From sequence record OL362041.1: 64,000 nucleotides of DNA, one strand, 5' to 3'. Of the stretch, positions 13,057-63,608 are shown piece after piece; the first letter of the stretch is position 1, and every line of letters starts with the position of its first letter. The notes below the pieces were generated by a model. That model was not told the origin of the DNA, ran no database searches, and saw only the letters and a program-made list of their open reading frames with translations. Made by a program: the position numbers and the translations under genes. The DNA is from Escherichia phage vB_Eco_OMNI12.

Positions 13057-14763
13057 TTATGGATAGGTATAGATGATACCAGTTTCTAAAGCAGTTTTAT
13101 GAATGATGTATCCATTGCGTGATTCTTGAACATCAACTTCTGGATAGTCTTTAATCATCTTCTGAAGAGTGTAACGATGCAGGTAGTATTTACTATCTGG
13201 GTCGTCAGTTTTCCAATCTTTACCTTCTTCGGTCATTTTTTGGATTTCATCCATAACCCACCAACCGCACCAGATATAAGCTGAAGTACGATGTGGAAGA
13301 GGATGAACATAAGGCAATTCACCTTCTGGTTCTGGAGCAACTTTATCAGTTACCTGAACTTGACCTTCTGCTGTAATAGTTTTGCTATCGTAATCAGTTG
13401 CAGTAACGACAGCAGTAACTTCAATAGTTTGACTTCCAACAGATGAGGTATCGACAGTATATACGTTAGTTGACCCTTCTACAGGAGAAGAATCTTTCTT
13501 CCATGAGTAAGTAATTTGTGCTTCTTCTGGAGCACCCGTAACATTAGCCGTAAATGTAGCCGAAGCATCTTGCTGAACGTTAATAGAAGGAGGAGTCAAT
13601 GTAACCTGTGGATTCATTGTTTTCTTATTAACAGTCAATGATACTTCATTAGAAGTAACTTCCTTTTCATTGTAATTTTCTGCAGTTACTTGCGCTACAC
13701 ACTTAACTGTTTTAGCTCCAACTGTGGTAGGAGTATAGTTAAATGTAGTAGTAGTTTCTCCATCGACCAGAGAACCGTCAACATACCACTGATACGTAGC
13801 AGACGCTCCTGGTGGCTGTGAATCCAAGGCAGCAGTAAATTGAACTGGGGTTCCAATTACTCCGGCAGCAGGATTAGCAGGAGTTACGGCTAACGTAGTT
13901 GTCTGTGTCTTCTTATTAACTGTTAATGATACTTCATTAGAAGTAACGCTTAGTGCATCATAATCTGTTGCTGTTACTTGCGCTACGCATTTAATTCTTT
14001 TTACTCCACTTGTAGTTGGAGTATAGCTAAATGTAGCAGAAGTCGCTTCACCAATTTGAGAATCATCTACATACCACTGATACGTAGCAGATGCCCCATC
14101 AGGTTGAGAAGCTAAGGCAGCAGTAAATTCAACGGCTGTTCCAATCACTCCAGCTGGAGGACTATCAGGAGTTACTGCCAAGGTAGTCGTCTGCGTCTTT
14201 TTATTAACAGTCAATGATACTTCATTAGAAGTAACGCTTAGTGCATCATAATCTGCCGCAGTTACTTGAGCTACACACTTGATTTTTTTAACTCCGCTTG
14301 TGTCAGGAGTGTAATTGAATGTAGCGTCAGTTGCTTCGTCTACAGGAGAACCGTCAACGTGCCATTGATACGTAGCGTTTGCACCTGATGGCTGTGAAGC
14401 TAAGGCAGCGGTAAATTCAATTGGAGTTCCAATCACTCCAGCATCAGGGCTACCAGGAGTTACTGCCAAAGTAGTTGTTTGTGTCTTATTTTGAACTGTG
14501 ATAGTTGTACTAATTTCAGCTGTTTCAGGTTCAGATTCTGCAACTTGATTGGTTGCAACTACTTTAATAGTCTTTTGACCGGCAGGTCCTTTTAGTACAT
14601 AACTAAAAGTTGCTGACGTTTCTTCCTGTGGAGCGTCGTCTACAGTCCAAGCATATGTAATAGGTCCATCTCCAGTTTGACCACTGGGTGTAGCAGTAAA
14701 CTGCTTAGTTTCATCAATAACCCCTGTCGGTGTTTTAGGAGTTATATCAACTGTAAAAGTCAT
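13057..14763 (-). CDS. hoc: highly immunogenic outer capsid protein Hoc, enlarged (five Ig-like modules plus capsid-binding C-terminal domain)
   Basis: 568 aa; repeated ~96 aa modules with conserved Trp/Cys Ig-like pattern; position rnlB-hoc-inh as in T4 (T4 Hoc recalled as 376 aa). Confidence 0.85.
   Translation of the reverse strand: MTFTVDITPKTPTGVIDETKQFTATPSGQTGDGPITYAWTVDDAPQEETSATFSYVLKGPAGQKTIKVVATNQVAESEPETAEISTTITVQNKTQTTTLAVTPGSPDAGVIGTPIEFTAALASQPSGANATYQWHVDGSPVDEATDATFNYTPDTSGVKKIKCVAQVTAADYDALSVTSNEVSLTVNKKTQTTTLAVTPDSPPAGVIGTAVEFTAALASQPDGASATYQWYVDDSQIGEATSATFSYTPTTSGVKRIKCVAQVTATDYDALSVTSNEVSLTVNKKTQTTTLAVTPANPAAGVIGTPVQFTAALDSQPPGASATYQWYVDGSLVDGETTTTFNYTPTTVGAKTVKCVAQVTAENYNEKEVTSNEVSLTVNKKTMNPQVTLTPPSINVQQDASATFTANVTGAPEEAQITYSWKKDSSPVEGSTNVYTVDTSSVGSQTIEVTAVVTATDYDSKTITAEGQVQVTDKVAPEPEGELPYVHPLPHRTSAYIWCGWWVMDEIQKMTEEGKDWKTDDPDSKYYLHRYTLQKMIKDYPEVDVQESRNGYIIHKTALETGIIYTYP
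13625..14488 (-). repeat. three tandem near-identical 288-bp coding repeats inside hoc
   Basis: Motif TTATTAACAGTCAATGATACTTCATTAGAAGTAAC recurs at 13625, 13913 and 14201. Confidence 0.85.
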
Positions 14764-14772
14764 AAGTTATCC

Positions 14773-15453
14773 TTATTTTAATGTTACGAAAGAAGAGTTG
14801 CGTGTTTCACGAATTAGAACTGATCCGTCACGGTTAATGTAATAAATTAAGCTAAATAAAGTTTGGTGTGCTGACGCATGTTCAAAACTAGTTGGGTGAG
14901 ATTTCCAATCAGGAGTTTCAGCAATCCATTGATAAATCCACCAAGGAACAGTACAGAATCCTGGATTTTTTCCAATCAACTGAAGATTCGGGCTAAAGTT
15001 TTCCGGAAGAGTAAATACAGACTGCTTTTCAGATTCAATAATCTCAGCTACAGCCTGTTCAAATTTTTCTTCAACAAATGGAGTATCTTCAATCAAAACA
15101 TCGGTATTTTCAGGAATTTTATCTGTTTCTACTACTTCAATTTTAATGTCAGATTTAACCGGAGAATCAATCAAAAGTGCTGCTTCTGGATTGACTTCTT
15201 CATCGTCATATTTTAACCCCTCTGCAGCATCAGCAGCATCAATTAAGTCTTTAATAGATAACCCATCAGTCTCCGGCATAGGTTCACTAGCGAGCTTCTG
15301 GAGAGCTTCTTCAATATCATTAACGATATTATCAAAAGATTTATTCTTTTTGACCTTTATACCAAACTGTTCAGCATATTCAGCTAATTTAGCTTTAGCT
15401 TCTTTATTATCATCAAGAGCCTTCAGCTCTGCAATATAATCTTTATCTATCAT
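14773..15453 (-). CDS. inh: inhibitor of prohead protease
   Basis: 226 aa acidic protein immediately downstream of hoc, T4 gene order. Confidence 0.6.
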   Translation of the reverse strand: MIDKDYIAELKALDDNKEAKAKLAEYAEQFGIKVKKNKSFDNIVNDIEEALQKLASEPMPETDGLSIKDLIDAADAAEGLKYDDEEVNPEAALLIDSPVKSDIKIEVVETDKIPENTDVLIEDTPFVEEKFEQAVAEIIESEKQSVFTLPENFSPNLQLIGKNPGFCTVPWWIYQWIAETPDWKSHPTSFEHASAHQTLFSLIYYINRDGSVLIRETRNSSFVTLK

Positions 15454-15466
15454 AATATTTCCTCAG

Positions 15467-15474
15467 TATAAATA
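15467..15474 (+). promoter_or_regulatory. late promoter TATAAATA upstream of uvsW
   Basis: Exact TATAAATA 30 nt before uvsW ATG. Confidence 0.6.
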
Positions 15475-15503
15475 TAGATATATTTATTACATGGTATTTA
15501 GAC

Positions 15504-25867: not shown

Positions 25868-25921
25868 TCCTCATGTTATGTCAGTAAGACTACTATAACA
25901 CAACACGAGGGACTTGTAAAC
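25868..25921 (-). repeat. 54-bp repeated hairpin element containing the SD of the downstream gene (copy A)
   Basis: 53/54 identical to 41815..41868; 12-bp stem with SD GAGG in the 3' arm. Confidence 0.8.
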
Positions 25922-27978
25922 TACATCTTGAACTTTTTAGACATTCCGTTGATGTTAACCAAAGAAGCTAAGATTTGAGAAACTTCGTTTTCCTCTTCTT
26001 TTGATTCTTCTACAAGGAATTGATTAAATCCAGCCATTGGACGAACTTCACCAGTTTCCATTAGATGGTCGCCATCATATACTGATTCTTCTAATTGTTC
26101 AGAAGGAGGAACGATTGTACCTTCGATTAGATACTTGTTATAAGCAGTTTCTTTCATAAAGTAAGTACTTACTTTATTAATCTTCAGTAAAATTCCACGT
26201 GGTAGAATAACTTCAGCTTCTGACGGAAATCCTGATAAATGACCCGGAACGATAACTTTGATTCGCTCAGCTCCTTTAATTACCATACCCACGCTAGTTT
26301 CAGCATCTTCATTAGCATATGTAGAATGACTACCCATATGCATCAAATCTTCTGCATCAACGGAACCTTCTCCTTCACCAGAAAATACTGCGCCGGAATC
26401 ATCTAGAGCCATATAGTTTTTACCATGCTCACCGAAGATATTTGGTTTAAGCGATGTGGATACGAAGTTCTTGAAATAGAACATTTTATTTTCAATGTTA
26501 TGACGCAAAGTTTTAAAGGTAACTTCTTGTCCACGGTAAAGTGTAGTTCCTGGAGGAAGAACTGAACCTTTAGCGAATGCAGAATCAAGCGTCTCAATAT
26601 GTTTAATAGCTCGTTCCATATATTCTTCACGGGTAGAATCTGGTTTACCCAAAAGGAACGAGTTCATTTCAACATATGAATCTGCACAATAATCTTCAAT
26701 TACATCAGATTCAGCTTGAGTTAATCCTTTTGGAGTTACTTCAGTGCTTGCGTATTCATATGCCTGAGCAGCAGATTCATTAATCAATTTATAAATGCCA
26801 TTCATGACAAATTGAATAATAGCTGTCTTTTCATCTGGCGTAGCTTTAGAACCTTTAACCAAATCATTGATAATTTTCTTAATAACATCAAAGCTATTAG
26901 AAATATTAATATCAGCAAGATCGCTTAAAATTTTATCAGTCTTATAATCAAAGAATTCTTTATTCTTTAAATATTCTTGAGAACCTTGATATGTTATATC
27001 GCTCTGTAACTTGATAGATGGATCACGTAAACGTGCATGGGCTAATGCAATATGATTTCGGAAGCTTTCGAGTTCATAATCACTAGATTTAAAACGAGAA
27101 GCGCTTCTCATACCGCCTATAGCTCCTTTGCTGAAGTTTGAACCAATTTGAATAACGCCAGAGTTCATTGGTCCTTCTGCTTTATACACCGGAACTTTAG
27201 ATTCAAACTCTTGATATTTCTTAGCAGCGAAGCTATCACCCTGAAGTGAAGCATCAACAGTAGAATATTGAGCTTGTGCTGCTAATCGACGACTAATTTT
27301 AGTTTTCTGAATAACAGCTTGGTCCGTGCGCTTATCATTTTCTAAAGCAATAGAAGCAGCAACAGCAACAGCTTTAGGAACAGCATTACCTGTTTTAACA
27401 TCTACATAAACATCACCAACCTTTGATTCAACTTTTGTGAATAACTCAGTTGAAATAGGAGGTACACCTGGAATGTCTTCTAAATTGGCATTTTTACGAT
27501 AAACCATAATATATGCGTACTTTTTATCATAATCCCAGATTTCCTTTAAAAGAACATATCGACCTGCTCCTTTAGTACGTACTAAACGGTCAGCAATAAC
27601 TTGCATTTGACGAGCAGCGCCATTTGTTTTACTCTTTAGTACGCGGAATAAGCATGCATCAATTTTATACTGTTTCATTGTTTGAAGAGCAGTATCAAAA
27701 ACAGCGTTAATGACGCCAATTGGATTTCCACCCAAGTTTCTAAGTTTAACCAGTGATAATTTCTCGTTGACACCTATCATTACGATATGCATCATTTTAT
27801 CGCCTGGCTTAACGTTTTTATTCGTATCACCACCAGAGGTGTATGTACAAAATCTAAATCCAGGAAGCACGCTTTCTTCGCCGGCTTGAATAGCAAAAAT
27901 TTGTGGTATTTTATGCTTAGGATTTAAGTTAACAACCGGCGCCGAAGCGCCGTCAAATAATTCTGTAATAAGTTCCAT
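25921..27978 (-). CDS. alt: Alt-like ADP-ribosyltransferase, paralog 1
   Basis: 685 aa; N-terminus MELITELFD; C-terminal R-S-E type ART motifs (TLYRGQ ... FVSTSL ... EAEVILPRG). Confidence 0.85.
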   Translation of the reverse strand: MELITELFDGASAPVVNLNPKHKIPQIFAIQAGEESVLPGFRFCTYTSGGDTNKNVKPGDKMMHIVMIGVNEKLSLVKLRNLGGNPIGVINAVFDTALQTMKQYKIDACLFRVLKSKTNGAARQMQVIADRLVRTKGAGRYVLLKEIWDYDKKYAYIMVYRKNANLEDIPGVPPISTELFTKVESKVGDVYVDVKTGNAVPKAVAVAASIALENDKRTDQAVIQKTKISRRLAAQAQYSTVDASLQGDSFAAKKYQEFESKVPVYKAEGPMNSGVIQIGSNFSKGAIGGMRSASRFKSSDYELESFRNHIALAHARLRDPSIKLQSDITYQGSQEYLKNKEFFDYKTDKILSDLADINISNSFDVIKKIINDLVKGSKATPDEKTAIIQFVMNGIYKLINESAAQAYEYASTEVTPKGLTQAESDVIEDYCADSYVEMNSFLLGKPDSTREEYMERAIKHIETLDSAFAKGSVLPPGTTLYRGQEVTFKTLRHNIENKMFYFKNFVSTSLKPNIFGEHGKNYMALDDSGAVFSGEGEGSVDAEDLMHMGSHSTYANEDAETSVGMVIKGAERIKVIVPGHLSGFPSEAEVILPRGILLKINKVSTYFMKETAYNKYLIEGTIVPPSEQLEESVYDGDHLMETGEVRPMAGFNQFLVEESKEEENEVSQILASLVNINGMSKKFKM

Positions 27979-27981
27979 GAT

Positions 27982-30039
27982 TTATCCTTGAACGAACTTG
28001 TAAGGCATGTTTGCAATATCTATACAAGACGCAATAATTCCAAGAGATGATTCTACTTTCTGTTTAACATTTGATGAAACAAATGATGCAAAATCAACTC
28101 TGTCTTCTATTTCAATATCACCTGTCATTGTAACTACTTCGCCGGTTTCCATTAGACGGTCACCGTCATAAATTACCGATTCGGTGAGTTCTTCTGTGGT
28201 CATAACTTCAGCTTGAATAAGCTTGTTGTTAGTTTTAACTGTTCCATCATTGTAAGATGCATCGGTTATTTTATTAACTTTGACCATTAATCCACGTGGC
28301 AAAATGACTTCCATTTCATTTGAAGGTGCTAAACTTCCACCTGGTAAAACAACATTGACTTTATCAGCCCCAGTAATAACCCATCCAATTCCAACTAAAT
28401 TATCGCTAGAATTTACTAGTCCTTCATCAGTTTTATCAATAGAAACACTTAAACGCTTTTCGTCTGGTAAAACACCCACAGATGAATCAGTCATCCAGGT
28501 ACCAAAAATATTTGGATATAATGATGTTGACACAAAATTTCTAAAATAAAAAACTCGATTTTTTACCAGTGCTTCATATATTGAAGGTAACATTCGTTGT
28601 GAACGATACAAAGTAATACCTTTTGGTAATCGTTCACCATTTTTAAAGGCAGAATCTAAATTATCAATAGCTTTTTCTATATCAGATGCTGTCAAAATAC
28701 TTGTACGCTCATCTGGATTATATAATCCCAAAAGAGCGTTATTTATGTCTACATATCCTGAACTTACGTATTCACGAATTCCGCGTTTTTGTGCCGGTGT
28801 GTATTTAGATGAATCTTTATTTTCGACTATAGGATGTAGTGACCATCCAGCGGTAAGAGCATATCCACGCAATTCTCTTCGAATAATCTTTGTTTTTATT
28901 GCATTCCAAGAATTTTGTACTAACTCATTCGCAGCATCTTGATTTAAATGCGAATGCTTGTTAATGTTTCTTTCTAACCAAGCACCTTTATATTTTTCTA
29001 AAGTATCATCAACTATAGAAGCAATAGTTTCTAAAGTTTTTATTGAAGTAATAGATTCTTTTCGTAATCTTTCTAAAGCTTTATTTTTTATTTCTGCATT
29101 AACATCAGATTCTTTATCTTCAGGAATTATAGAAGCTTCTCTGAATGCCATTCCAGCTGTAACACTACTAAGAGCATTCTCTAATGCAAATCCTGAAGTA
29201 GAAATAACAGTTAATTCATTAGCGTCAGAAATTAAAGGAGCGTCAGCAGGTTTATTTAATTCTGCTGCTGAAGCCTCAAATTTTTGAAACATCGGCGTTT
29301 CAAATCTAGAAGATTCCAATGATTGACTTTGCGCAATTGCTCTACGGGAAATTTTAACTTTAACGATTACAGCTTGGTCAGAACGTTTATCATTTTCTTG
29401 TGCAATAGATGCTGCAATTGCCTCATTTTTGGTTACTTGAACTCCGGTATCTTTATTGATATAAACATCACCGACCTTCGATTCAACTTTAGTAAAGAGC
29501 TCGGTACTAATTTCCGGAACTCCTGGAATGTCTTCTAGTGATACATTTTTGCGATGTATAAGAATATATGCATACTTTTTATCATAATCCCAGAGTTCCT
29601 TAAGAAGGACGTATCTGCCACCTGAACGACTACGGATAAGTCTATCAGCAATAACTTGAATTTGTCGAGCTTGACCAGCGGTTTTAGACTTAAGAATACG
29701 AAGCATACAAGCATCAATTTTATACTGACGCATTGTTTGCATTGCAACAGTAAAAACTGAATTGATATAATTAATTGGGCTTGGACCAAGACCTTTTAAT
29801 TTAGCAATTGAACCTTTAGCAGTTAATGTAAAAGGAACAATATGCATCATTTTATCGCCCATCTTTAAATCGCGATTAGTATCACCTCCAGATGTATAGG
29901 TACATAAACGAAAACCTGGTTGTTCAATTGCATCATCAACATGAACTGAAAAAATTTGTGGTATTTTCTTCTTTGGATTTAAGTTTGTAATCGGAAGAGT
30001 AGTATCTTCGTCAAATAATTCTGTAATAAGTTCCATCAT
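27982..30039 (-). CDS. alt: Alt-like ADP-ribosyltransferase, paralog 2
   Basis: 685 aa; same N-terminus; ART motifs (TLYRSQ ... FVSTSL ... EMEVILPRG); late promoter upstream. Confidence 0.85.
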   Translation of the reverse strand: MMELITELFDEDTTLPITNLNPKKKIPQIFSVHVDDAIEQPGFRLCTYTSGGDTNRDLKMGDKMMHIVPFTLTAKGSIAKLKGLGPSPINYINSVFTVAMQTMRQYKIDACMLRILKSKTAGQARQIQVIADRLIRSRSGGRYVLLKELWDYDKKYAYILIHRKNVSLEDIPGVPEISTELFTKVESKVGDVYINKDTGVQVTKNEAIAASIAQENDKRSDQAVIVKVKISRRAIAQSQSLESSRFETPMFQKFEASAAELNKPADAPLISDANELTVISTSGFALENALSSVTAGMAFREASIIPEDKESDVNAEIKNKALERLRKESITSIKTLETIASIVDDTLEKYKGAWLERNINKHSHLNQDAANELVQNSWNAIKTKIIRRELRGYALTAGWSLHPIVENKDSSKYTPAQKRGIREYVSSGYVDINNALLGLYNPDERTSILTASDIEKAIDNLDSAFKNGERLPKGITLYRSQRMLPSIYEALVKNRVFYFRNFVSTSLYPNIFGTWMTDSSVGVLPDEKRLSVSIDKTDEGLVNSSDNLVGIGWVITGADKVNVVLPGGSLAPSNEMEVILPRGLMVKVNKITDASYNDGTVKTNNKLIQAEVMTTEELTESVIYDGDRLMETGEVVTMTGDIEIEDRVDFASFVSSNVKQKVESSLGIIASCIDIANMPYKFVQG

Positions 30040-37733: not shown

Positions 37734-37966
37734 AGTACGCCATACACCCTTTGTGCTTCAACTAATCCATCAAAATCCAATTTGAGATGTGTTATTTGGT
37801 CACCATCACCTGGATTCACAATTACTAATACCGAACGAGGAGTTTCGGTAATAACACGAACCGACGTTTCAGGAAATCGTTCAGAAACCTTATTTACCAA
37901 TTCTTGAGCAAATAGTTTAACTTTTTCTTGGAATTCTTTAACAGTAATTGGTTTTTCGCTTAGCAT
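37730..37966 (-). CDS. hypothetical protein (cd.x block)
   Basis: 78 aa ORF. Confidence 0.45.
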   Translation of the reverse strand: MLSEKPITVKEFQEKVKLFAQELVNKVSERFPETSVRVITETPRSVLVIVNPGDGDQITHLKLDFDGLVEAQRVYGVL

Positions 37967-38487
37967 GTTGATCCTAGCTCCTTACTTTCAACATTTTTAA
38001 CTAATTTGACAGAAACTAATTCAGCATCTTGGGTAATCATTACCGGACCTTCTTCATGCTCTTCAAGATATTCTAGAGCTTTCTTTTTAGCTTCTTCCTT
38101 CGTATCAGTTTGAGCATAGATATAGAACATACAACCAGTAATACCTACTACTTTCCACTTAATTTCTTTATCAGTTTTAATTTCAAATTTACTTACAGAA
38201 TCATCTTTTTGAACTTCTTCGAAAAAAGAATATTCTAACATATAAGCAATTGAAAATAACGGGCTAACTTTATAGGATTCACCCATTACATCAACAGCTT
38301 TATACCAACAATCATCAATTTCACGTTTAATGCTAATAACATTTTTCGCAGGATCTATTTTTACTTTAAATGAATTTTCCCCAATAAACTGGGCAATTCG
38401 TTTATTAGCCCCGCAAGTTTCATTAAAAATATCTTTATATCCAGCTTTAAAGCGATAAACCTTATCTTCTTCAAACCATTCGCTCAT
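37960..38487 (-). CDS. hypothetical protein (cd.x block)
   Basis: 175 aa ORF. Confidence 0.5.
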   Translation of the reverse strand: MSEWFEEDKVYRFKAGYKDIFNETCGANKRIAQFIGENSFKVKIDPAKNVISIKREIDDCWYKAVDVMGESYKVSPLFSIAYMLEYSFFEEVQKDDSVSKFEIKTDKEIKWKVVGITGCMFYIYAQTDTKEEAKKKALEYLEEHEEGPVMITQDAELVSVKLVKNVESKELGSTC

Positions 38488-39028: not shown

Positions 39029-40436
<1,408 letters not shown>

Positions 40437-40440
<4 letters not shown>

Positions 40441-41871: not shown

Positions 41872-43459
<1,588 letters not shown>

Positions 43460-43486
43460 AATAAAATGGGCCTTGCGGCCCACTCC

Positions 43487-44665
43487 TTAAAAGTATTTTT
43501 TAAAACTCATCATAACTTTATCATCAACATCATTATCAATCTGTGCAACAAGATAAGATGACAGTTCTACTTCTTGTGGCGCTGATTGAACATTATCAGA
43601 ATTAAGATATTCACGAATCCAAGGATATGGATGTTTAACCGGAGCATCGGTAATTGGGCATGGAAGACCACACTGTTTCATACGAGATACAGTTAAGTAA
43701 TCAATAAAGCTCCACATGCTATTTGTATTTAATCCAGGAACATCGCCATCTTTAAATAAATGAACTGCCCAATCTTTTTCTTGGCGGTTAACTTCCATGA
43801 AAATATCAACTGCTTCTTGCTCGCACTCTTGAGCAATTTTAACCCATTCATCGCCATCAGTACCAGATTGAAGTTGACGAATAATATATTGTGTACCTTT
43901 AAGATGAAGCTGCTCATCACGTGCAATGAACTTCATAATCTTGGCATTACCTTCCATGATTTCCATGTTTTTATGGAAGTTAAAGGTACACGCAAAGGAT
44001 ACATAAAAACGAATAGCTTCTAATGCATTGATTACATGCAAACAGAGGTAAAGAGATTTCATTAGCTCACGCTTCCAATATGTCTCATGCTCAATAGCAT
44101 CTTCAATAACGTCTTCGTCTGCATTAATTTCTTTTTGGTATTCGATATCAGCTTTAGCGTTTTCCCAATAACGAGTTTTAATCAGAACATCATCATAATA
44201 ACGTCCAATGGATTCAGCACGTTTCATAATAGCTTCATCTAATACAATCTCATCAAATACCTTTGACGGATCAGTATAAAGATTTCGCATGATATGAGTG
44301 TATGAACGACTGTGAATAGTTTCACTAAAAGTCCATGTAGCAACCCATGTATCAAGGCTTGGGTCTGAAATTAACGACATAAGTACAGCAGATGGTGCAC
44401 GACCCTGAATGCTATCCAAAAGTGATTGATACTTCAAGTTGTTAGTAAAAATATTTTGCTGATACTGAGGAAGCTTATTAAACTGTGCAGCATCCATCAT
44501 TAAGTTTACTTCTTCCGGGCGCCAGAAAAATGATAAGGACTTTTCTGTAAGTTCTTCAAATACTCGATGCCGTTGAATATCATAACGCGCAATACCAAGA
44601 CCTGAACCAAAAAACATAGGTTCTTTTAAAACATCAACTGGATTTGTATTAAAAACTGTGCTCAT
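43487..44665 (-). CDS. nrdB: ribonucleotide reductase beta subunit, uninterrupted
   Basis: 392 aa continuous ORF with di-iron ligand motifs typical of class Ia R2. Confidence 0.9.
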   Translation of the reverse strand: MSTVFNTNPVDVLKEPMFFGSGLGIARYDIQRHRVFEELTEKSLSFFWRPEEVNLMMDAAQFNKLPQYQQNIFTNNLKYQSLLDSIQGRAPSAVLMSLISDPSLDTWVATWTFSETIHSRSYTHIMRNLYTDPSKVFDEIVLDEAIMKRAESIGRYYDDVLIKTRYWENAKADIEYQKEINADEDVIEDAIEHETYWKRELMKSLYLCLHVINALEAIRFYVSFACTFNFHKNMEIMEGNAKIMKFIARDEQLHLKGTQYIIRQLQSGTDGDEWVKIAQECEQEAVDIFMEVNRQEKDWAVHLFKDGDVPGLNTNSMWSFIDYLTVSRMKQCGLPCPITDAPVKHPYPWIREYLNSDNVQSAPQEVELSSYLVAQIDNDVDDKVMMSFKKYF

Positions 44666-44716
44666 AAATTTTCCGCTTAGTTAATAGTTGGTGACTCGTC
44701 CGTGAGTCAAATTATA

Positions 44717-46981
44717 TCATAATTTACAGGATGAACAATCTTCAGCTTTTGGAGTTTCTATTTCATAATCATCAGTACCAGAACCATCACGGGTATTATG
44801 ATAATAGAAATTTTTAATGCCATAATACCATCCGTATAGCATGTCATCAATCATTATTGACATTGGAACCTTTCCTTTTGGAAAAATCTGCGGGTCATAG
44901 TATGTATTCGCTGAAGCTGATTGACATACCCATTTCAGCATAATAGCTACCTGCGTAAGATAAGGTTTATTACCTTTCTTAGCTAATTTCCATGTATAAT
45001 CATAGAGGTCTATGTTATGCTCAATATTGGGCACGACTTGATTAAAGGAGCCCTCTTTTGATTCTTTAACAGAGACTGGTCCACGTGGAGGCTCGATACC
45101 GTTTGTACTGTTAGAAACTTGGGAAGATGACTCACATGGCATAAGTGCTGATAATGTGCTATTACGGATGCCAAAGAGCTTAAGGTCTTCCCGCAGCGCC
45201 GACCAGTCACAAACGTATTTTGGAGCTGCGATTTGGTCAATCTTTTTATTGTACCAGTCGATAGGTAATTCGCCTCGAGACCAACGAGTGTCTGAATAAT
45301 ATTCGCAAGGTCCTTTTTCTTTGGCGAGCTTAATGGATGCTTTAATGAGCCCATACTGTAATCTCTCAAATAGTTCATGTGTTAAATCGTTAGCATCTTC
45401 ATAAGAAGCAAAGTTACTTGCCAGCCAAGCTGCATAGTTGGTAACACCTACACCGAGGTTACGGCGCTTTTTAGCTTTTTCTGCTTCAGGAACTGGATAT
45501 CCTTGGTAATCCAAAAGATTATCAAGAGCACGAACTTGAACTTCTGCCAATTCATTAATTTTATCTTGGTCTTGCCAGTCAAAATTATCTAGTACGAATG
45601 CAGAGAGAGTACACAATCCAATTTCAGCATCAGGACTATTCACATCATTTGTTGGAATAGCAATTTCACAACACAAGTTGCTCTGACGAATAGGTGCCTT
45701 TTCACGAATAAACGGAGTATAGTTATTCGTATTATCTATGAACTGTACATAAATCCTTGCTGTTCCTGAGCGTTCAGTCATGAGTAATTCAAACAGTTCA
45801 CGGGCTTTAATACGCTTTTTACGAATATTAGGGTCTTTTTCTGCGGCTTCGTATAATTCACGGAAACGGTCTTGGTCTTTAAAATAAGAATAATAAAGCT
45901 CGCCACCCATTTCATGCGGACTGAACAAAGTAATGTAATCGTTCTTTCCAAAACGTTCCATCATCAAATCATTCAGCTGAACACCATAATCCATATGACG
46001 AATGCGGTTTTCTTCTACGCCTTTGTTATTTTTCAAAACGAGAAGATTTTCAACTTCCAAATGCCAAATAGGATAATAAGCAGTAGCAGCGCCGCCACGA
46101 ATTCCGCCCTGTGAACATGATTTAACAGCAGTCTGAAAATGTTTCCAAAAAGGAATAACACCAGTATGGCGTACTTCACCCATGCCAATCTTAGAACCTT
46201 CAGCACGAATCATACCAACGTTAATACCAATTCCAGCACGTTTGGAGATATATTCAACAATTGAAGCAGAAGCCTTATTAATAGACTTTAATGAATCACC
46301 TGCCTCAATAACAACGCATGAACTAAACTGCCGAGTTGGAGTACGGCAACCAGCCATAATAGGAGTTGGTAATGAAATCTGTCGAGTAGATACTGCTTCA
46401 TAAAAACGAATAACATGTTTTAATCTATCAACAGGTTCATCTTGATGCAATGCCATTCCAATAGTCATAAATGCAAACTGTGGAGTTTCATAAATTTGAC
46501 CAGTGGTTTTATCTTTAACTAGATATTTTTCTTTTAATTGCATCGCCCCGGAATAAGTAAATTCCATATCCCGCTCGTGCTTAATTTTTGATTCTAAAAA
46601 TGTAATTTCTTCTGCTGAATATTTTGACAATAATTCAGGGTCATATTTACCTTCATTTACACAGTAAGAAATATGGTCAATAAATGAACGTGGTTCATAC
46701 TGCCCATAAACATGCTTACGAAGAGCAAACATTAAACAGCGTGCAGCTACATATTGATAATCAGGTTCTTCAACCGAAATAGAATTCGCAGCGGCCTTAA
46801 TGACAATAGTCTGAATATCATCAGTTGTCATTCCATCACGGAGATAAGATTTAATATTTTCATATAATTCATAAGGATCTACTGATGTTCCCTCAGCTGC
46901 CCAAGATAAAACTTTAATAATTTTTTGTGGGTCAAAGCTCTGAGAAACACCACTACTTTTGATAACATTAATTAATTGCAT
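44717..46981 (-). CDS. nrdA: ribonucleotide reductase alpha subunit
   Basis: 754 aa; ATP-cone N-terminus and catalytic Cys motifs (NLCCEIAIP, CESSS). Confidence 0.9.
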   Translation of the reverse strand: MQLINVIKSSGVSQSFDPQKIIKVLSWAAEGTSVDPYELYENIKSYLRDGMTTDDIQTIVIKAAANSISVEEPDYQYVAARCLMFALRKHVYGQYEPRSFIDHISYCVNEGKYDPELLSKYSAEEITFLESKIKHERDMEFTYSGAMQLKEKYLVKDKTTGQIYETPQFAFMTIGMALHQDEPVDRLKHVIRFYEAVSTRQISLPTPIMAGCRTPTRQFSSCVVIEAGDSLKSINKASASIVEYISKRAGIGINVGMIRAEGSKIGMGEVRHTGVIPFWKHFQTAVKSCSQGGIRGGAATAYYPIWHLEVENLLVLKNNKGVEENRIRHMDYGVQLNDLMMERFGKNDYITLFSPHEMGGELYYSYFKDQDRFRELYEAAEKDPNIRKKRIKARELFELLMTERSGTARIYVQFIDNTNNYTPFIREKAPIRQSNLCCEIAIPTNDVNSPDAEIGLCTLSAFVLDNFDWQDQDKINELAEVQVRALDNLLDYQGYPVPEAEKAKKRRNLGVGVTNYAAWLASNFASYEDANDLTHELFERLQYGLIKASIKLAKEKGPCEYYSDTRWSRGELPIDWYNKKIDQIAAPKYVCDWSALREDLKLFGIRNSTLSALMPCESSSQVSNSTNGIEPPRGPVSVKESKEGSFNQVVPNIEHNIDLYDYTWKLAKKGNKPYLTQVAIMLKWVCQSASANTYYDPQIFPKGKVPMSIMIDDMLYGWYYGIKNFYYHNTRDGSGTDDYEIETPKAEDCSSCKL

Positions 46982-47298
46982 AAGTCCTCAACTTGAAAAT
47001 CGTCTTTAAACAATCGGTTAACTATATGAGCTATTATATCACCATGACACGGCTTTGGTTTACATGTGCATCCTAGCCTCATTCCACGTAAAGGCTCTAA
47101 ATGTGCTTTAGTTATTTCTCCGGATTTAATTCGACGTATAAAATCTTTTTTGAATAATTCAATGGCAGCCTCCCGGCTGCCAGCATCTTTACCGACGTAA
47201 TTTCCCCAAAATGTACCACGGTGAATATTAACATCAAAGTCGGATTTGTATTTATTCACTACCCGACATAGACGGCCCGCGCGGTGATAATTCGGCAT
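46972..47298 (-). CDS. DUF4326-like protein (nrdA.1 position)
   Basis: 108 aa; WGN...[12 protein letters not shown] pattern. Confidence 0.5.
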
Positions 47299-47515
47299 AT
47301 TGTTTTTCCGTTAAAACAGTAATATCGTAGTAACAGTCAGAAGAAGTTTTAACTGTGGAAATTTTATTATCAAAATACTCACGAGTCATTTTATGAGTAT
47401 AATATTTTTTGCCATAAATGATAATAGGCTGATTTGGTCCTGGAACTTCTAGCTCACTTGGATTAGGAAGTGTAAAAAGAACTACACCAGAAGTATCTTT
47501 AAATCGTAAAATCAT
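47252..47515 (-). CDS. hypothetical protein (nrdA.2 position)
   Basis: 87 aa ORF; 47-nt overlap with downstream ORF. Confidence 0.4.
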
Positions 47516-48372
47516 ATTGCCATTTTCCCTTTAATTGCTGGATGCGATTCATAATTTTCAAGGATAAAATCTTTCGGTTTCATGTATTCAGTTAACCAGT
47601 AAAGCTGTGTTTCGGTGTCACAATTTCCAAACTCTATAGGCCAATCAATTTTAAGTTCACATAGTTCTTTAGGCTCACGACGTAAAATTTCTTTACATTG
47701 CTCAGTATGATTCATATAGATGTGAGTATTACCACCAGAAAATATCAAATCTCCTGGGATAAGATTACACATCTTAGCCACAATATGCGTCAAGGCAGCG
47801 TACGAGGCAATGTTGAATGGCAATCCCAAGAAAACATCTACACTTCTTTGGTACCATTGTAAATCAAGATAACCATTACGCACATTAAACTGATAGAACA
47901 TATGACAGGGCGGTAATGCCATTTGATTGATTTCAGCTGGATTCCATGCTGAAACGATTTGACGTCGATCAGTTGGTAATTTTTTAATACGATCAATAGT
48001 TTCAACTAATTGATCCACACCGCCGAAATCACGCCATTGTTTACCGTATATAGGACCAAGTTCACCACTATGATATCCTAGGTCTTTAGCCTGGTTTTCA
48101 TAGTTATCGTCCCAAATAGTTTTACCTTGAATAAGACTACCATGTGTGCGAAGACGTAAATCATTAACATTGGTAGAACCGGAAATAAACCATAGAAGCT
48201 CAGCAATGCATGCATTCCATGCAAGCTTCTTAGTTGTTACCGCAGGAAAACCTTTAGTTAAATCCCAACGTAATTTAGTACCGAACAAAGCAATTGTTCC
48301 TGTGCCTGTTCGGTCATCGGTTTCATAGCCATTTTCAAAAATGTCTTTAATTAAATCTTGGTATTGTTTCAT
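47512..48372 (-). CDS. td: thymidylate synthase, uninterrupted
   Basis: 286 aa continuous ORF; catalytic PPCH motif ([11 protein letters not shown]). Confidence 0.9.
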
Positions 48373-48417
48373 TTAGTACCTTATATAAATTATAATACAT
48401 TTTATGAAGCTAAATAA

Positions 48418-48765
48418 TCAATACGGTTTAGCATCAAATTTTCTCTCAATTTCAGGCGTGAAATATAATTCTTTACCGCGTTTGGAAAAGCGACCAATAA
48501 TATGATAATTATTCTCATCAAACGTGATATTACCAATATCCATAGCTTTCAACCAAATATCGATATTTCTATCCAGCTTTATGTCAAAATTCCAATACGG
48601 AGAACTATTACCGAAAATACTGCAAGCGGATTCAGTGAAACAACTGCTATAAATCTTGTCTTTAGGAACTACTAATTGATAGACACCTTTAATAAACTGA
48701 GGACCCTGCCACTTTGGCTGTTTCGTGTCTTTTTCTAATAGAATAGGGTAATAATTAAAATTCAT
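48418..48765 (-). CDS. hypothetical protein between frd and td
   Basis: 115 aa ORF; no motif recognised. Confidence 0.45.
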   Translation of the reverse strand: MNFNYYPILLEKDTKQPKWQGPQFIKGVYQLVVPKDKIYSSCFTESACSIFGNSSPYWNFDIKLDRNIDIWLKAMDIGNITFDENNYHIIGRFSKRGKELYFTPEIERKFDAKPY

Positions 48766-48784
48766 ATTTCCGCCACGCGTTATT

Positions 48785-49611
<827 letters not shown>

Positions 49612-50788: not shown

Positions 50789-51697
50789 TTAAAGGTCATT
50801 CAAAAGGTCATCTAGATCCGTGTCATCAGCACTAGATGAACTGCCAGAGCTTGAGCTCATAAAATCATCTTCAGTTTTTGTTTTGAAGTCATCAACATTG
50901 AATGCATCCAAATCATCAGCAACTTTATCAGCTTTCTTAGCGGCAGTTGCAGCGGCACCACCCATTGCAGCAGTTCCCATAACTTGACTGAACTTAGTGC
51001 TCAGTTCTTCAAATGATTTGAATTTATCTTTAGAAGTCATTTCAGAAAGGTCAACCATTTGTTCGAACAGTTCTTTCTGGAAAGATTCATCGTCAATGTT
51101 TGGAATCGCAGATTGATTCAGGAATTTAGATTCGTCGTAGTTACTAAAACCAGAAACTTGTTTAACTTTCAGTACAAAGTTAGCACCTTCCCACGGACAA
51201 GTTACATCAACCGGAGTTTCACCCATTTCAACATCAACCGCAATCATTGCATTGATTTTATCCCAGATTTTCTTACCGAAACGATATTTAAATACTTTAC
51301 CTTCGTTTTCTGGAGCAGCTGGGTCTTTTACAACAAGAATGTTAGCCCAGTAAGAAGTTTTACGTTTAACAAGACTGTACTCTTTATTGTCAGTGTTGTA
51401 CAAATCATTTTTACTGATATACTGACATACTGGACAAGAATCGTAATCACCGTGGGTAGATGAACATGTTTCAATATACCATTTACCATTTTTCTTGAAA
51501 CCGTGATTTACAAGAATTGCGAATGGTGCTTGTTCATCATTTTTAGACGGAAGAAAACGAATTACTGCTTGACCGTTACCCGCATTATCGAGTTTCAGTT
51601 TCCACTCGCCTTTATCTTCAGAAGAAAAACCACCTTTATTTCCAGCCAGTTTAGCCATTTGTGCAGCGAGTTCAGCAGTAGATTTACGTTTAAACAT
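50789..51697 (-). CDS. 32: single-stranded DNA-binding protein
   Basis: 302 aa; zinc-binding Cys/His cluster and acidic Ser/Asp-rich C-terminus; T4-type leader and terminator. Confidence 0.9.
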
Positions 51698-59777: not shown

Positions 59778-62744
59778 ATGGCTACTTTAAAACAAATACA
59801 ATTTAAAAGAAGCAAAACTGCAGGAGCACGTCCTGCCGCTTCAGTATTAGCCGAAGGTGAATTGGCTATAAACTTAAAAGATAAAACAATTTTCACAAAA
59901 GATGACTCAGGTAGTGTTATAGAATTAGGTTTAAAATATGGAGGAACTATAAATGGGTCTTTAGAGGTTACAGAAAATATAACTGGAACTTTAATTGGAA
60001 ATTCTAGCACAGCTACTAAATTGCAAACACCTAGGAAAATTAATGGTATATCTTTTGATGGGTCAAAGGACATTACCTTAACTCCATCTGACATAAATGT
60101 CAATAGCACAACATTTATAAAAAATAATGGCGAATTACCTACTGATGCTAATTTAGATACGTATGGGCCCATTGAAGAATATCTTGGTGTTTGGTCGAAA
60201 TCTACTTCAACAAATGCGCAACCAGCAAATAAATTCCCAGAAGAAAATGCCGTAGGTGTACTAGAAGTGTTTGTGGCCGGCCAATTTGCTGGCACTCAGC
60301 GTTATACTGTAAGATCTGGTAACGTCTATATTCGTTCCTTATCTGCTAAATGGAATGGCGTCGATGGTCCATGGGGTGTGTGGCGTAATGTTCAAGCGTC
60401 AACTCGTCCACTTTCACAAACGATTGACCTTGATAGCTTGGGAGAATTAGAACATTGCGGCTTATGGCGAAACAGTTCAAGCGCAATCGCATCATTTGAT
60501 CGCCATTATCCAGAAGAAGGATCAGCCGCACAAGGATTTTTAGAAATATTTGAAGGTGGTTTATACACGAGAACTCAGCGTTATACTACCCGAATGGGTG
60601 TTGTATATGTTCGTTGTCTTGCTGGTGCATGGGATCCAGAAGCTCCGAATTGGGGACCGTGGCAACAAGTAGGTATGGTTACTCCCAACACATTCTATGA
60701 CGGGGATCTTAATAATTTTCGTTCTCCTGGCTTATATAATATTTTAGGCACTGATGCCGTTATTAACCGTCCAGTTGCAGAAGGTGTTCCGGTTGAGATG
60801 ACCGGATTGCTTGAGGTTAAACAGCGTGCTTCCGGTGCCGCTATTTTCCAACGTTTCACTACCGCAGGAACGGGTGCAACTACGCGATCTCGCGTGTTTG
60901 AACGTGCGATGACAAATAACATCTGGGGAAATTGGTACGAAGTATATACGTCCTATTCTATGCCGATCACTCTGGGTATGGGTGGTGTTAAATCTCAATT
61001 AGCGGAGCTAGACTGGCAAACCTTTGATTTTGTCCCTGGTAGTATGTTTAGTGTTCCTTTGAACAAAATAAAGAATATGCCAGCAAATATGGATTGGGGG
61101 ACGATTGACGGAAACTTGGTTATGTTTTCTGTCGGTCCTAGCGAACATACCGGAACGGGTCGAACTGTTCAAGTGTGGCGCGGTACTGTATCTCAGGCGA
61201 ACTATCGTTATTTCGTTGTTCGTATCGCTGGTAATCCAGGAAGTAGGACTAATACTTGTCGTCGTGTTGTTGTGGAAGATGGTCGCCACACATGGACAGC
61301 ACAGCAAGATTTTAATGGTGCTGTCAACTTTGGTGGTTCGACAACTTTTAAGTCCACTACAACTTTTAACACAGAAGTTAAATTCCGTTCATCCAATGCA
61401 TTTAAAATGTATGGCGGTAATTTTGGCACAATTTTCCGTAATGATGGTGAAAGTCTTTATATTCTTTCCACCGACGAAGATGATCAAGATGGAAACTTTA
61501 ATACAAATAGACCTTTCCGTTATGAATTAAGAACTGGTGATGTTACTTTAGGTGGTACTAGTGGTGCTAACGTTTTAAAATTAAAACGTGATTCTCTCAC
61601 CGCATTTTTTGGTGGTGATATTAACATGAAAGGCTTGATGACTTTTGACGCCGGACGTTTAGGATCACGAGATTATTTTAAATTTAACCATTGGGGTGAT
61701 AGTAATAATGCGCGCGATAACATTATTCAGTTAGAAGACAGCAAAGGCGTTCATTTTTCCACTGAACGTACTTTAGCGACAGGTGCAATTAAGACTAAAT
61801 TTTTTGGTGAAATTGAATCCGATGGTAAATTGATTATTAAACGTCCGGGCGATTCTATTGTATTATCAACAACTGCTAGTAATTCTTTGCATATTCGCGG
61901 TGATATAGACGGGACTGGTAACTGGTATATTGGTAAAGGTGGTGCTGATAATGGATTAGCGTTCTATAGTTATGCTACTAATGCTGGTGTATACATTACA
62001 AACGCAGGAGATATCTCGCTAAGTCCAAAGGGTGCCGAAATGGCTCAGGTCAATAACGTTCGATTATATGTTCATGGTGAACGTTGGACCGCTAGTCAAC
62101 CAGGTGATTGGGGCAGTCAGTGGCAAGTGGAAGCGCCAATATTCGTCGATCATGGTTATGTTGGACCAGATAGCTATTATCCAATTATTAAAGGAAGAAG
62201 TGTAGTCACCAATCAAGGGTTTGTAACTGCCGTCGATCTTGGTATTCGTCGTGTCCCTAACAATTGGGGGCAAGCAATTATTCGTGTTGGATCTGCAGAG
62301 GCATCGCCAGCGGCTGGACACCCTAACGCGGTATTTGAATTTCATTACGACGGTACTTTCTATTCTCCTGGTAATGGTAACTTTAACGATGTGTATATTC
62401 GTTCCGATGGTCGTCTTAAGATTAATAAAAAAGAGCTAGAAAACGGAGCACTTGAAAAAGTATGTCGACTGAAAGTTTATACATACGATAAGGTTAAGTC
62501 TATTAAAGATCGTAGTGTTATTAAACGTGAAGTTGGTATTATTGCTCAGGATCTTGAAAAAGAATTATCAGAAGCTGTATCTAAAGTTGAAGTTGATGGA
62601 TCTGATGTTCTGACAATTTCTAACTCCGCTGTAAATGCTCTTTTAATTAAGGCTATCCAAGAAATGAGCGAAGAAATTAAAGAATTGAAAACGCCTTTCT
62701 TCACTAAAATTGCTCGCAAAATTGGTAAATACTTTAAATTCTAA
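59778..62744 (+). CDS. 37: long tail fibre distal subunit with C-terminal intramolecular-chaperone-like domain
   Basis: 988 aa; C-terminus SDGRLK ... [11 protein letters not shown] resembles the S74-type chaperone domain of other fibre proteins. Confidence 0.85.
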
Positions 62745-62750
62745 TAACAA

Positions 62751-62763
62751 GGGGCATTGCCCC
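62751..62763 (+). promoter_or_regulatory. hairpin between genes 37 and 38 adjacent to the gene 38 SD
   Basis: GGGG-CATTG-CCCC followed by TTT GGAG. Confidence 0.5.
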
Positions 62764-62777
62764 TTTGGAGATAAATT

Positions 62778-63578
62778 ATGGCAGTAGTTGGTGTTCCTGG
62801 TTGGATTGGAAGTTCATCCGTAAATGAAACAGGGCAACGATGGATGAGTCAAGCGGCTGGTCAATTAAGATTGGGTGTTCCTTGCTGGATGAGTCAATTT
62901 GCAGGTCGCTCGCGAGAAATTATTCACACGCTTGGAGCAGACCATAACTTCAATGGTCAATGGTTCCGAGATAGATGTTTTGAGGCAGGTAGTGCACCTA
63001 TAGTGTTTAATATTACAGGTGATTTAGTATCATATTCTAAAGATGTTCCTTTATTCTTCATGTACGGGGATACGCCTAATGAATATGTTGTTCTTAATAT
63101 TCATGGCGGTGTTCATATGTGGGGTCGTGGTGGTAATGGTGGATACACTCACTCAGGAGGCGACGGTAACGGTACACAAGGCGGTCATGTTATTCAAAAT
63201 GATATCGGTGGACGGCTTCGTATTTGGAACTACGGTGTTATAGCTGCTGGCGGTGGCGGCGGTGGTGGTATTGCATATCGTCCACACTCAGGGGCAAACT
63301 GGCAAGATATCGGTGGCGGTGGTGGTCGACCTTTCGGTGCCGCGGGCGGTGGCGGTTATTCCGGTGGTGCTGCTTCGTATGAAGGTCCGGGTGGTGGTTA
63401 TGACTATGGTAACGCACACTCCGGCGCAGGTGGTAATGCTGGTGCTGCTGGTCAGAATGCATGGTCTGACGGCGGTAAAGTTCTTAAAGTTGGTGTTGGT
63501 GGTGCGTCTGGTCATGCAGTGTTTGGGTCTTCTCCAACTTGGGGTGCTGTTGGAACAATTTACGGACCAAGAGTATAA
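62778..63578 (+). CDS. 38: T2-type receptor-recognising adhesin gp38 with glycine-rich motifs
   Basis: 266 aa; poly-Gly motifs ([25 protein letters not shown]) separating short variable segments. Confidence 0.8.
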
Positions 63579-63608
63579 TGTGAATAAATACCCTTAAAAG
63601 GAGGGTCT

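Follow-up and report, generated by a model that had tools for sequence, protein, structure and literature searches.

Do the thymidylate synthase gene (td) and the gene for the beta subunit of ribonucleotide reductase (nrdB) of Escherichia phage vB_Eco_OMNI12 carry the group I introns and homing endonuclease genes (HEGs) of phage T4 and, if not, were these elements lost or never acquired? We consider this question for a stretch of 64,000 nucleotides (nt) of record OL362041.1, referred to here as the window, on which both genes are encoded by the minus strand. T4 (NC_000866) has a 1017-nt intron with I-TevI in td and a 598-nt intron with a truncated I-TevIII in nrdB, together with an insertion of mobE and nrdB.1, and the window is without all of these. 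It is very likely that td and nrdB of the window are empty-site alleles that were never invaded, in a T2/RB14-like Tequatrovirus without the T4 homing elements in this region. The two genes and their empty insertion sites are placed as follows, with lengths of the products in amino acids (aa) and gene calls based on open reading frames (ORFs) and Pfam matches.

43487-44665, minus strand: nrdB, uninterrupted, 392 aa (ORF and Pfam Ribonuc_red_sm)
43990/43989, minus strand: empty nrdB insertion site, from alignment to spliced T4
47512-48372, minus strand: td, uninterrupted, 286 aa (ORF and Pfam Thymidylat_synt)
47823..47824, minus strand: empty td insertion site, 47824 being the last exon-1-equivalent base and 47823 the first exon-2-equivalent base

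For comparison with T4, td and nrdB of the annotated record were spliced by hand and the window was aligned by BLAST. The window is colinear with T4, and the td-nrdB alignment breaks only at extra T4 DNA. At the td intron position a T4 gap of 1021 nt corresponds to 4 nt in the window, at the nrdB intron position 598 nt correspond to 0 nt, and at the position of mobE and nrdB.1 700 nt correspond to 55 nt. The spliced T4 junctions (marked here by a slash) read TTGGGT/CTACCG in td, where exon 1 is 549 nt long, and TTTGCGT/GTACC in nrdB, where it is 664 nt long. Across the same points the window reads TTGGGA/TTGCCA in td and TTTGCGT/GTACC in nrdB, in both cases in frame and with no inserted bases, and the td product matches Pfam Thymidylat_synt from end to end (E 7e-96). 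BLAST and tblastn searches of the whole 64 kilobases (kb) gave no significant nucleotide or protein match to either T4 intron, or to I-TevI, I-TevIII, MobE or NrdB.1. Rfam was uninformative at its gathering threshold, being blank in the window but also on both T4 introns, and was therefore used in E-value mode, in which the Intron_gpI model matches both T4 introns as a positive control (E 9e-8 and 2e-6) and finds none in window positions 43000-49500. Because the finding concerns only whether introns are there or not, and was checked at every base, chance is not at issue. The initial annotation had described td (286 aa) and nrdB (392 aa) as single continuous ORFs, and this is borne out by the ORFs, the Pfam matches and the clean T4 junctions. 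The alignment that it had proposed at the T4 intron insertion points reads through in frame at both, and the cryptic intron remnants that it had named as contrary evidence were found neither on alignment nor in the similarity search of the 64 kb. Both genes are continuous reading frames for which no splicing is needed, and their annotation requires no join() features.

The initial annotation had also regarded both genes as potential homing targets. In nrdB the sites that such targeting would involve are the following.

43972..44023, minus strand: I-TevIII homing-site equivalent (-34..+18), with the cut positions -14/-16 at 44003-44005
44510..44552, minus strand: equivalent of the MobE target in nrdB, with the polymorphic nt 114-131 at 44535-44552

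From -34 to +18, 51 of the 52 bases are identical to T4, the sole change lying at -8, and the bases at the cut positions are the same in the window and in T4. These cut positions, and the T4 intron-deleted nrdB substrate, have been characterised (PMC1865063). Phage WilhelmHis, which is 97% identical over the region, has an intron of 1091 nt, containing an endonuclease ORF of 229 aa, exactly between 43989 and 43990. With an essentially intact site, and with an intron in a close relative at the identical junction, the claim holds well for nrdB. MobE nicks T2 nrdB at nt 122-126, and all phages lacking mobE have AAG as nrdB codon 42, followed by a conserved block coding for FFWRPEE (PMC2790892). 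In the window codon 42 is AAG (44540-44542), the FFWRPEE-coding block lies at 44510-44530 and the spacer of 51 base pairs (bp) between nrdA and nrdB is without mobE, so that nrdB has the sequence features of a predicted MobE target. As a separate observation, an nrdB patch at 44025-44185 (codons ~160-200) has only 30-37 of each 60 nt identical to T4 and four additional codons. It lies upstream of the intron site at a distance of 65-185 nt, with the remainder of nrdB 92-100% identical to T4, and looks like a recombination mosaic.

Judged by its sequence, the td gene belongs to an allele type that is distinct and divergent. At the nucleotide level it is 83% identical to T4 in the exon-1-equivalent and 66-71% in the exon-2-equivalent part (66% ungapped, 71% gapped), and 239 of 286 aa of the protein are identical, with the last ~45 residues very different. 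The homing site lies across the empty junction.

47813..47850, minus strand: equivalent of the 38-bp I-TevI homing site (-27..+11), following the site definition of PMC2988022

Within this site the window departs from T4 at 10 of 38 bases, in each case synonymously (-24, -22 to -19, -1, +1, +3, +6 and +9), and five of the changes fall among the 20 positions of the primary binding region around the insertion site (-1, +1, +3, +6 and +9). At 47846-47850 (-27..-23) lies the cleavage motif, CAAAG as against CAACG in T4, so that CNNNG retains its critical C and G at the natural distance from the insertion site. I-TevI needs a CNNNG cleavage motif (PMC2988022; PMC5009752) and is described as tolerant of substitutions (PMC2988022). 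Over motif and spacer together, T2 matches T4 at 19 of 20 positions and the window at 15 of 20. The closest tested natural substrate is the td of RB32, which shares CAAAG and the first six spacer bases (AAGTGT) with the window, and is the one phage td sequence on which the activity of an I-TevI nuclease/linker fusion was reduced but not abolished (PMC4065259). A search of the literature available found no published I-TevI activity specifically on the CAAAG triplet. The td site is diverged and probably suboptimal, but demonstrably open to invasion. As a homing target td fares less simply than nrdB: its homing site is not intact in sequence, but CNNNG is kept and intron-bearing versions of the allele exist.

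These intron-bearing versions were examined in a comparison of td among seven phages, made at the 198 sites where window and T4 differ. U5 (AY262155), G8, Lutter and e11/2 have the same td allele type as the window but contain an intron of 1016 nt (445 nt in e11/2). Both of their exons are window-type at nearly all of the 198 sites, apart from a short tract of T4 type, with its upstream end at -49 to -24 and its downstream end at +3 to +9; in these four alleles, inspected in full, the tract covers the interval between the I-TevI cut site (-23/-25) and the insertion site. The clean tract is shortest in U5, where the upstream switch falls within -34 to -28 and the downstream switch within +3 to +6. 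In ESh24, AV121 and KarlGJung, exon 1 is window-type to within 50-110 nt of the insertion site and T4/T2-type thereafter. Position -1 is T in all intron-bearing alleles inspected and A in the window; group I splicing requires U at -1. When the 3' end of the intron joined to U5 exon 2 was used as a query, ~31 records (a count that includes GenBank/RefSeq duplicates) paired the intron with a window-type exon 2 at full coverage and at least 94% identity. On their best segment, about 119 records reach at least 90% identity to the window td, and roughly 80-90 of these, an approximate figure, are intron-less.

I-TevI stays bound on the exon II side, which biases co-conversion to exon I (PMC2988022), and endonuclease-initiated repair is expected to leave a tract whose upstream end lies a little before the I-TevI cut and which hardly extends into exon 2. 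In the U5/G8/Lutter-type alleles the short donor tracts illustrate I-TevI-initiated repair cleanly and in a natural setting, though the principle has already been published. As intron-bearing versions of the window allele exist in nature, the window td would be a real homing target, and on these comparisons it is an uninvaded copy of an allele that other phages carry in invaded form.

Several points weigh against this picture of untouched, susceptible alleles. Among the td site differences are four spacer bases beside the cleavage motif, and with its RB32-like motif and spacer td may be cleaved inefficiently. The MobE region around the nick site differs from T2 at several bases flanking codon 42, and the chimeric td alleles could in principle have come from ordinary recombination and not from endonuclease-initiated repair. 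The td allele might accordingly be partly refractory to I-TevI, with synonymous recoding selected for lower cleavage and the intron-less state actively maintained. The purely synonymous nature of the ten changes and the similarity to RB32 would fit such a history, as would the uninterrupted td of 40 of the 40 closest relatives over a 5.8-kb region and the finding that only 9% of the 38-nt td segments with fully conserved amino acids are as diverged as the homing site. When all 38-nt td segments are compared, however, 36% are as diverged or more, so that the site lies within the gene-wide level and its divergence is not significantly unusual. The critical C and G are retained, and the ~31 records with an intron beside this exon 2, with short co-conversion tracts in the four that were inspected, speak against refractoriness as well; invasion of the allele in nature argues against complete resistance. 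We regard a partly refractory td as unlikely. It is quite unlikely, too, that the recoded site (CAAAG, the altered spacer and A at -1) has been kept common by selection against invasion, which would imply an ongoing arms race and not a lack of exposure. An optional 115-aa ORF with 12-nt repeats next to td, described below, could add to refractoriness by breaking flanking homology.

Alternatively, an ancestor may have had both introns and lost them precisely. Degeneration and loss of HEGs and introns belong to the accepted homing cycle (PMC2988022), degenerate introns occur in relatives, such as the 445-nt td intron of e11/2 and G28, and the nrdB flanks are so close to T4 that loss is conceivable there. 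In td, however, the tract from cut site to insertion site is window-type at every informative position and shows nothing of the T4-type co-conversion footprint present in all intron-bearing alleles inspected, and this lack of a donor-type tract argues against precise intron loss. The A at td -1 is incompatible with the U needed for splicing, and at nrdB positions -8 and +20 the intron-bearing WilhelmHis is T4-type, where the window has its own type. Secondary loss therefore appears very improbable. That introns are present but were missed, or were collapsed in assembly, is a negligible prospect, as the frames are continuous and full-length with Pfam matches from end to end, over 100 independent records match the window td allele at 90% identity or more, all nine sampled records at 96% identity or more carry an uninterrupted td, and T2 is organised identically.

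If td and nrdB are indeed never-invaded alleles, they would be invaded when a relative with introns infects the same cell. I-TevI would then attach at about 47813-47833 and cleave at CAAAG (47846-47850), an RB3-type I-TevIII would cut nrdB 14/16 bp upstream of 43990, and MobE would nick near nrdB codon 42. The breaks would then be repaired from the donor genome, and the intron or endonuclease gene would be copied in together with a short stretch of donor exon. That these enzymes cleave the window DNA is inferred. When T4-type phages co-infect, markers within 43.5-48.4 kb, and those close to the vacant segD, segE and segG sites, are predicted to be excluded.

The surroundings of the two genes are those of a T4-type phage. 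From 41.8 to 51.7 kb the window holds a minus-strand block of T4-type early genes, according to the ORF listing and Pfam matches spanning full domains, of which the remaining members considered here are listed below.

41872-43032, minus strand: rnlA
43049-43483, minus strand: denA (endonuclease II), with a GIY-YIG fold, orthologue of T4 denA
44666-44716, minus strand: nrdA-nrdB spacer, 51 bp, the empty site at the T4 mobE and nrdB.1 slot
44717-46981, minus strand: nrdA, uninterrupted, 754 aa (ORF and Pfam)
46972-47298, minus strand: nrdA.1 (DUF4326; ORF and Pfam)
47252-47515, minus strand: nrdA.2 (DUF5496), its start overlapping the td stop
48418-48765, minus strand: 115-aa ORF between frd and td
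48785-49366, minus strand: frd
50789-51697, minus strand: gene 32

In a megablast search of GenBank phages, positions 43000-48800 are 99.2% identical to Escherichia phages ES12 and ES26, and the figure is 97-98.6% for RB14, RB18, the G4498 group and numerous further Tequatrovirus genomes. The window phage is a Tequatrovirus of T2/RB14-like type. ES12/ES26, RB14, the G4498 group and WilhelmHis, at 97-99% identity over the same positions, have an uninterrupted td as in the window. T2 (AP018813), the intron-less recipient ordinarily used for crosses with T4 (PMC2790892), has the same order of denA, nrdB, 51-nt spacer, nrdA, nrdA.1, nrdA.2, td, 115-aa ORF and frd. Its nrdB (1179 nt) and td (861 nt) are likewise uninterrupted, mobE is missing and nrdB codon 42 is AAG, but its td is only 78% identical to that of the window (668/861), as against 93% for nrdB. 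T4 has orthologous, syntenic genes, with flanks 94-97% identical and a nearly identical nrdB insertion site. Apart from its introns and mobE with nrdB.1, it differs in having no ORF between frd and td, and a 20-nt gap where the nrdA.2 start and td stop overlap in the window.

Other relatives have been invaded elsewhere in the same region. In UFV-AREG1 (97% identical) a 236-aa HNH/NUMOD endonuclease gene splits nrdA near window positions 45613-45722, with short duplicated nrdA segments on both sides of it, and the window nrdA represents the empty site. In vB_Eco_NR1 a gene for a D12-class N6-adenine (Dam-like) DNA methyltransferase occupies the nrdA-nrdB spacer at window positions 44660-44686. 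This is the slot taken by mobE in T4. The window has neither the HNH/NUMOD endonuclease gene nor the methyltransferase gene. At 44681-44698 (minus strand) the window spacer contains a 6-bp inverted repeat, TGACTC ACGGAC GAGTCA, not followed by a T-run and located just upstream of the nrdB ribosome-binding region. Phages lacking mobE have been described as having no terminator at the nrdA-nrdB spacer (PMC2790892), and a scan of the region for promoter and terminator consensus sequences gave counts equal to the shuffled expectation.

The intron-less state is the common one. Of ~607 phage records that hold at least 80% of the td-nrdB region, 197 contain the td intron and 118 the nrdB intron (each at 80% or more), while a full-length T4-type mobE is present in 21; these counts are approximate and include GenBank/RefSeq duplicates. 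Roughly two thirds of relatives are therefore without the td intron and about four fifths without the nrdB intron, and T4 is an outlier in its load of homing endonucleases (PMC2988022). Intron-less td and nrdB are the normal, already documented state of T4 relatives, and the window phage is not singled out by them. Variable td and nrdB introns in T-even phages, T2-type recipients, exon co-conversion and the HEG load of T4 are all known at textbook or review level (PMC2988022; PMC2790892), and taken alone an intron-free td and nrdB have little significance.

The lack of homing endonuclease genes extends beyond these two genes. When the whole window was aligned to T4 positions 96437-160612, all six of the T4 HEGs in the matching interval (segD, segE, I-TevIII, mobE, I-TevI and segG) were absent, and in the window only 0-60 nt stand in place of each. 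The suggestion of the initial annotation that the phage is HEG-poor in the td-nrdB interval is confirmed by the absence of I-TevI, I-TevIII and mobE, and the absence of segD, segE and segG carries it across the window. The only GIY-YIG protein nearby is denA, found in the same place in T4, T2 and RB32, and it was rejected as a homing endonuclease gene since it is a conserved orthologue of T4 denA and not an optional element. Relative to T4 the window has inserts of its own at 37966-38484, 40121-40433, 48376-48779 and 49387-49588, and a Pfam search found no nuclease domain in the window-specific small ORFs. Three of these ORFs, all on the minus strand and in inserts missing from T4, encode 175 aa (37960-38487, between cd.2 and cd.3), 106 aa (40120-40440, beside pseT) and 81 aa (49366-49611, between frd and frd.1), with no significant Pfam domain.

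The insert at 48376-48779 is the one that separates frd from td. It is 404 nt long relative to T4, in which the frd stop and the td start overlap, and it encodes the 115-aa ORF. Its boundaries are marked by a 12-nt direct repeat, TAAATGAAATAA / TAAATGAAACAA, at 48364-48375 and 48780-48791, which duplicates the frd-stop/td-start junction; the RB32 record describes the same ORF as flanked by a 9 bp repeat. The ORF is present in T2, RB32, G8 and others and missing from T4 and e11/2, and it accompanies td genes that have the intron as well as td genes that lack it. In two BASEL phage records it is annotated as a putative homing endonuclease, a label for which domain, sequence and fold searches gave no support. 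There was no Pfam match at E up to 10 and no sequence match in the PDB, and a Foldseek search of the PDB with a poor AlphaFold model (pLDDT 59.5) gave no match below E 0.9. In PHROGs the ORF belongs to a family of unknown function, and a search for homologues gave only three clusters. It leaves the verdict on td and nrdB unchanged.

Elsewhere in the window three further differences from T4 were seen. About 3.6 kb at 59933-63583 have no nucleotide alignment to T4 genes 37/38, which is consistent with a different, perhaps T2-type, distal tail-fibre/adhesin module. At 13906-15490 three overlapping alignments fall on one T4 hoc segment (T4 110748-111053), a pattern pointing to one or two more tandem copies than in T4 of a ~300-nt unit coding for a Hoc domain. 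A 685-aa ORF at 25921-27978 (minus strand), beside the regular alt region at 27631-30039, has ~69% identity to part of T4 alt, and looks like a second, diverged alt-like ADP-ribosyltransferase gene in place of T4 alt.-1/-2/-3.

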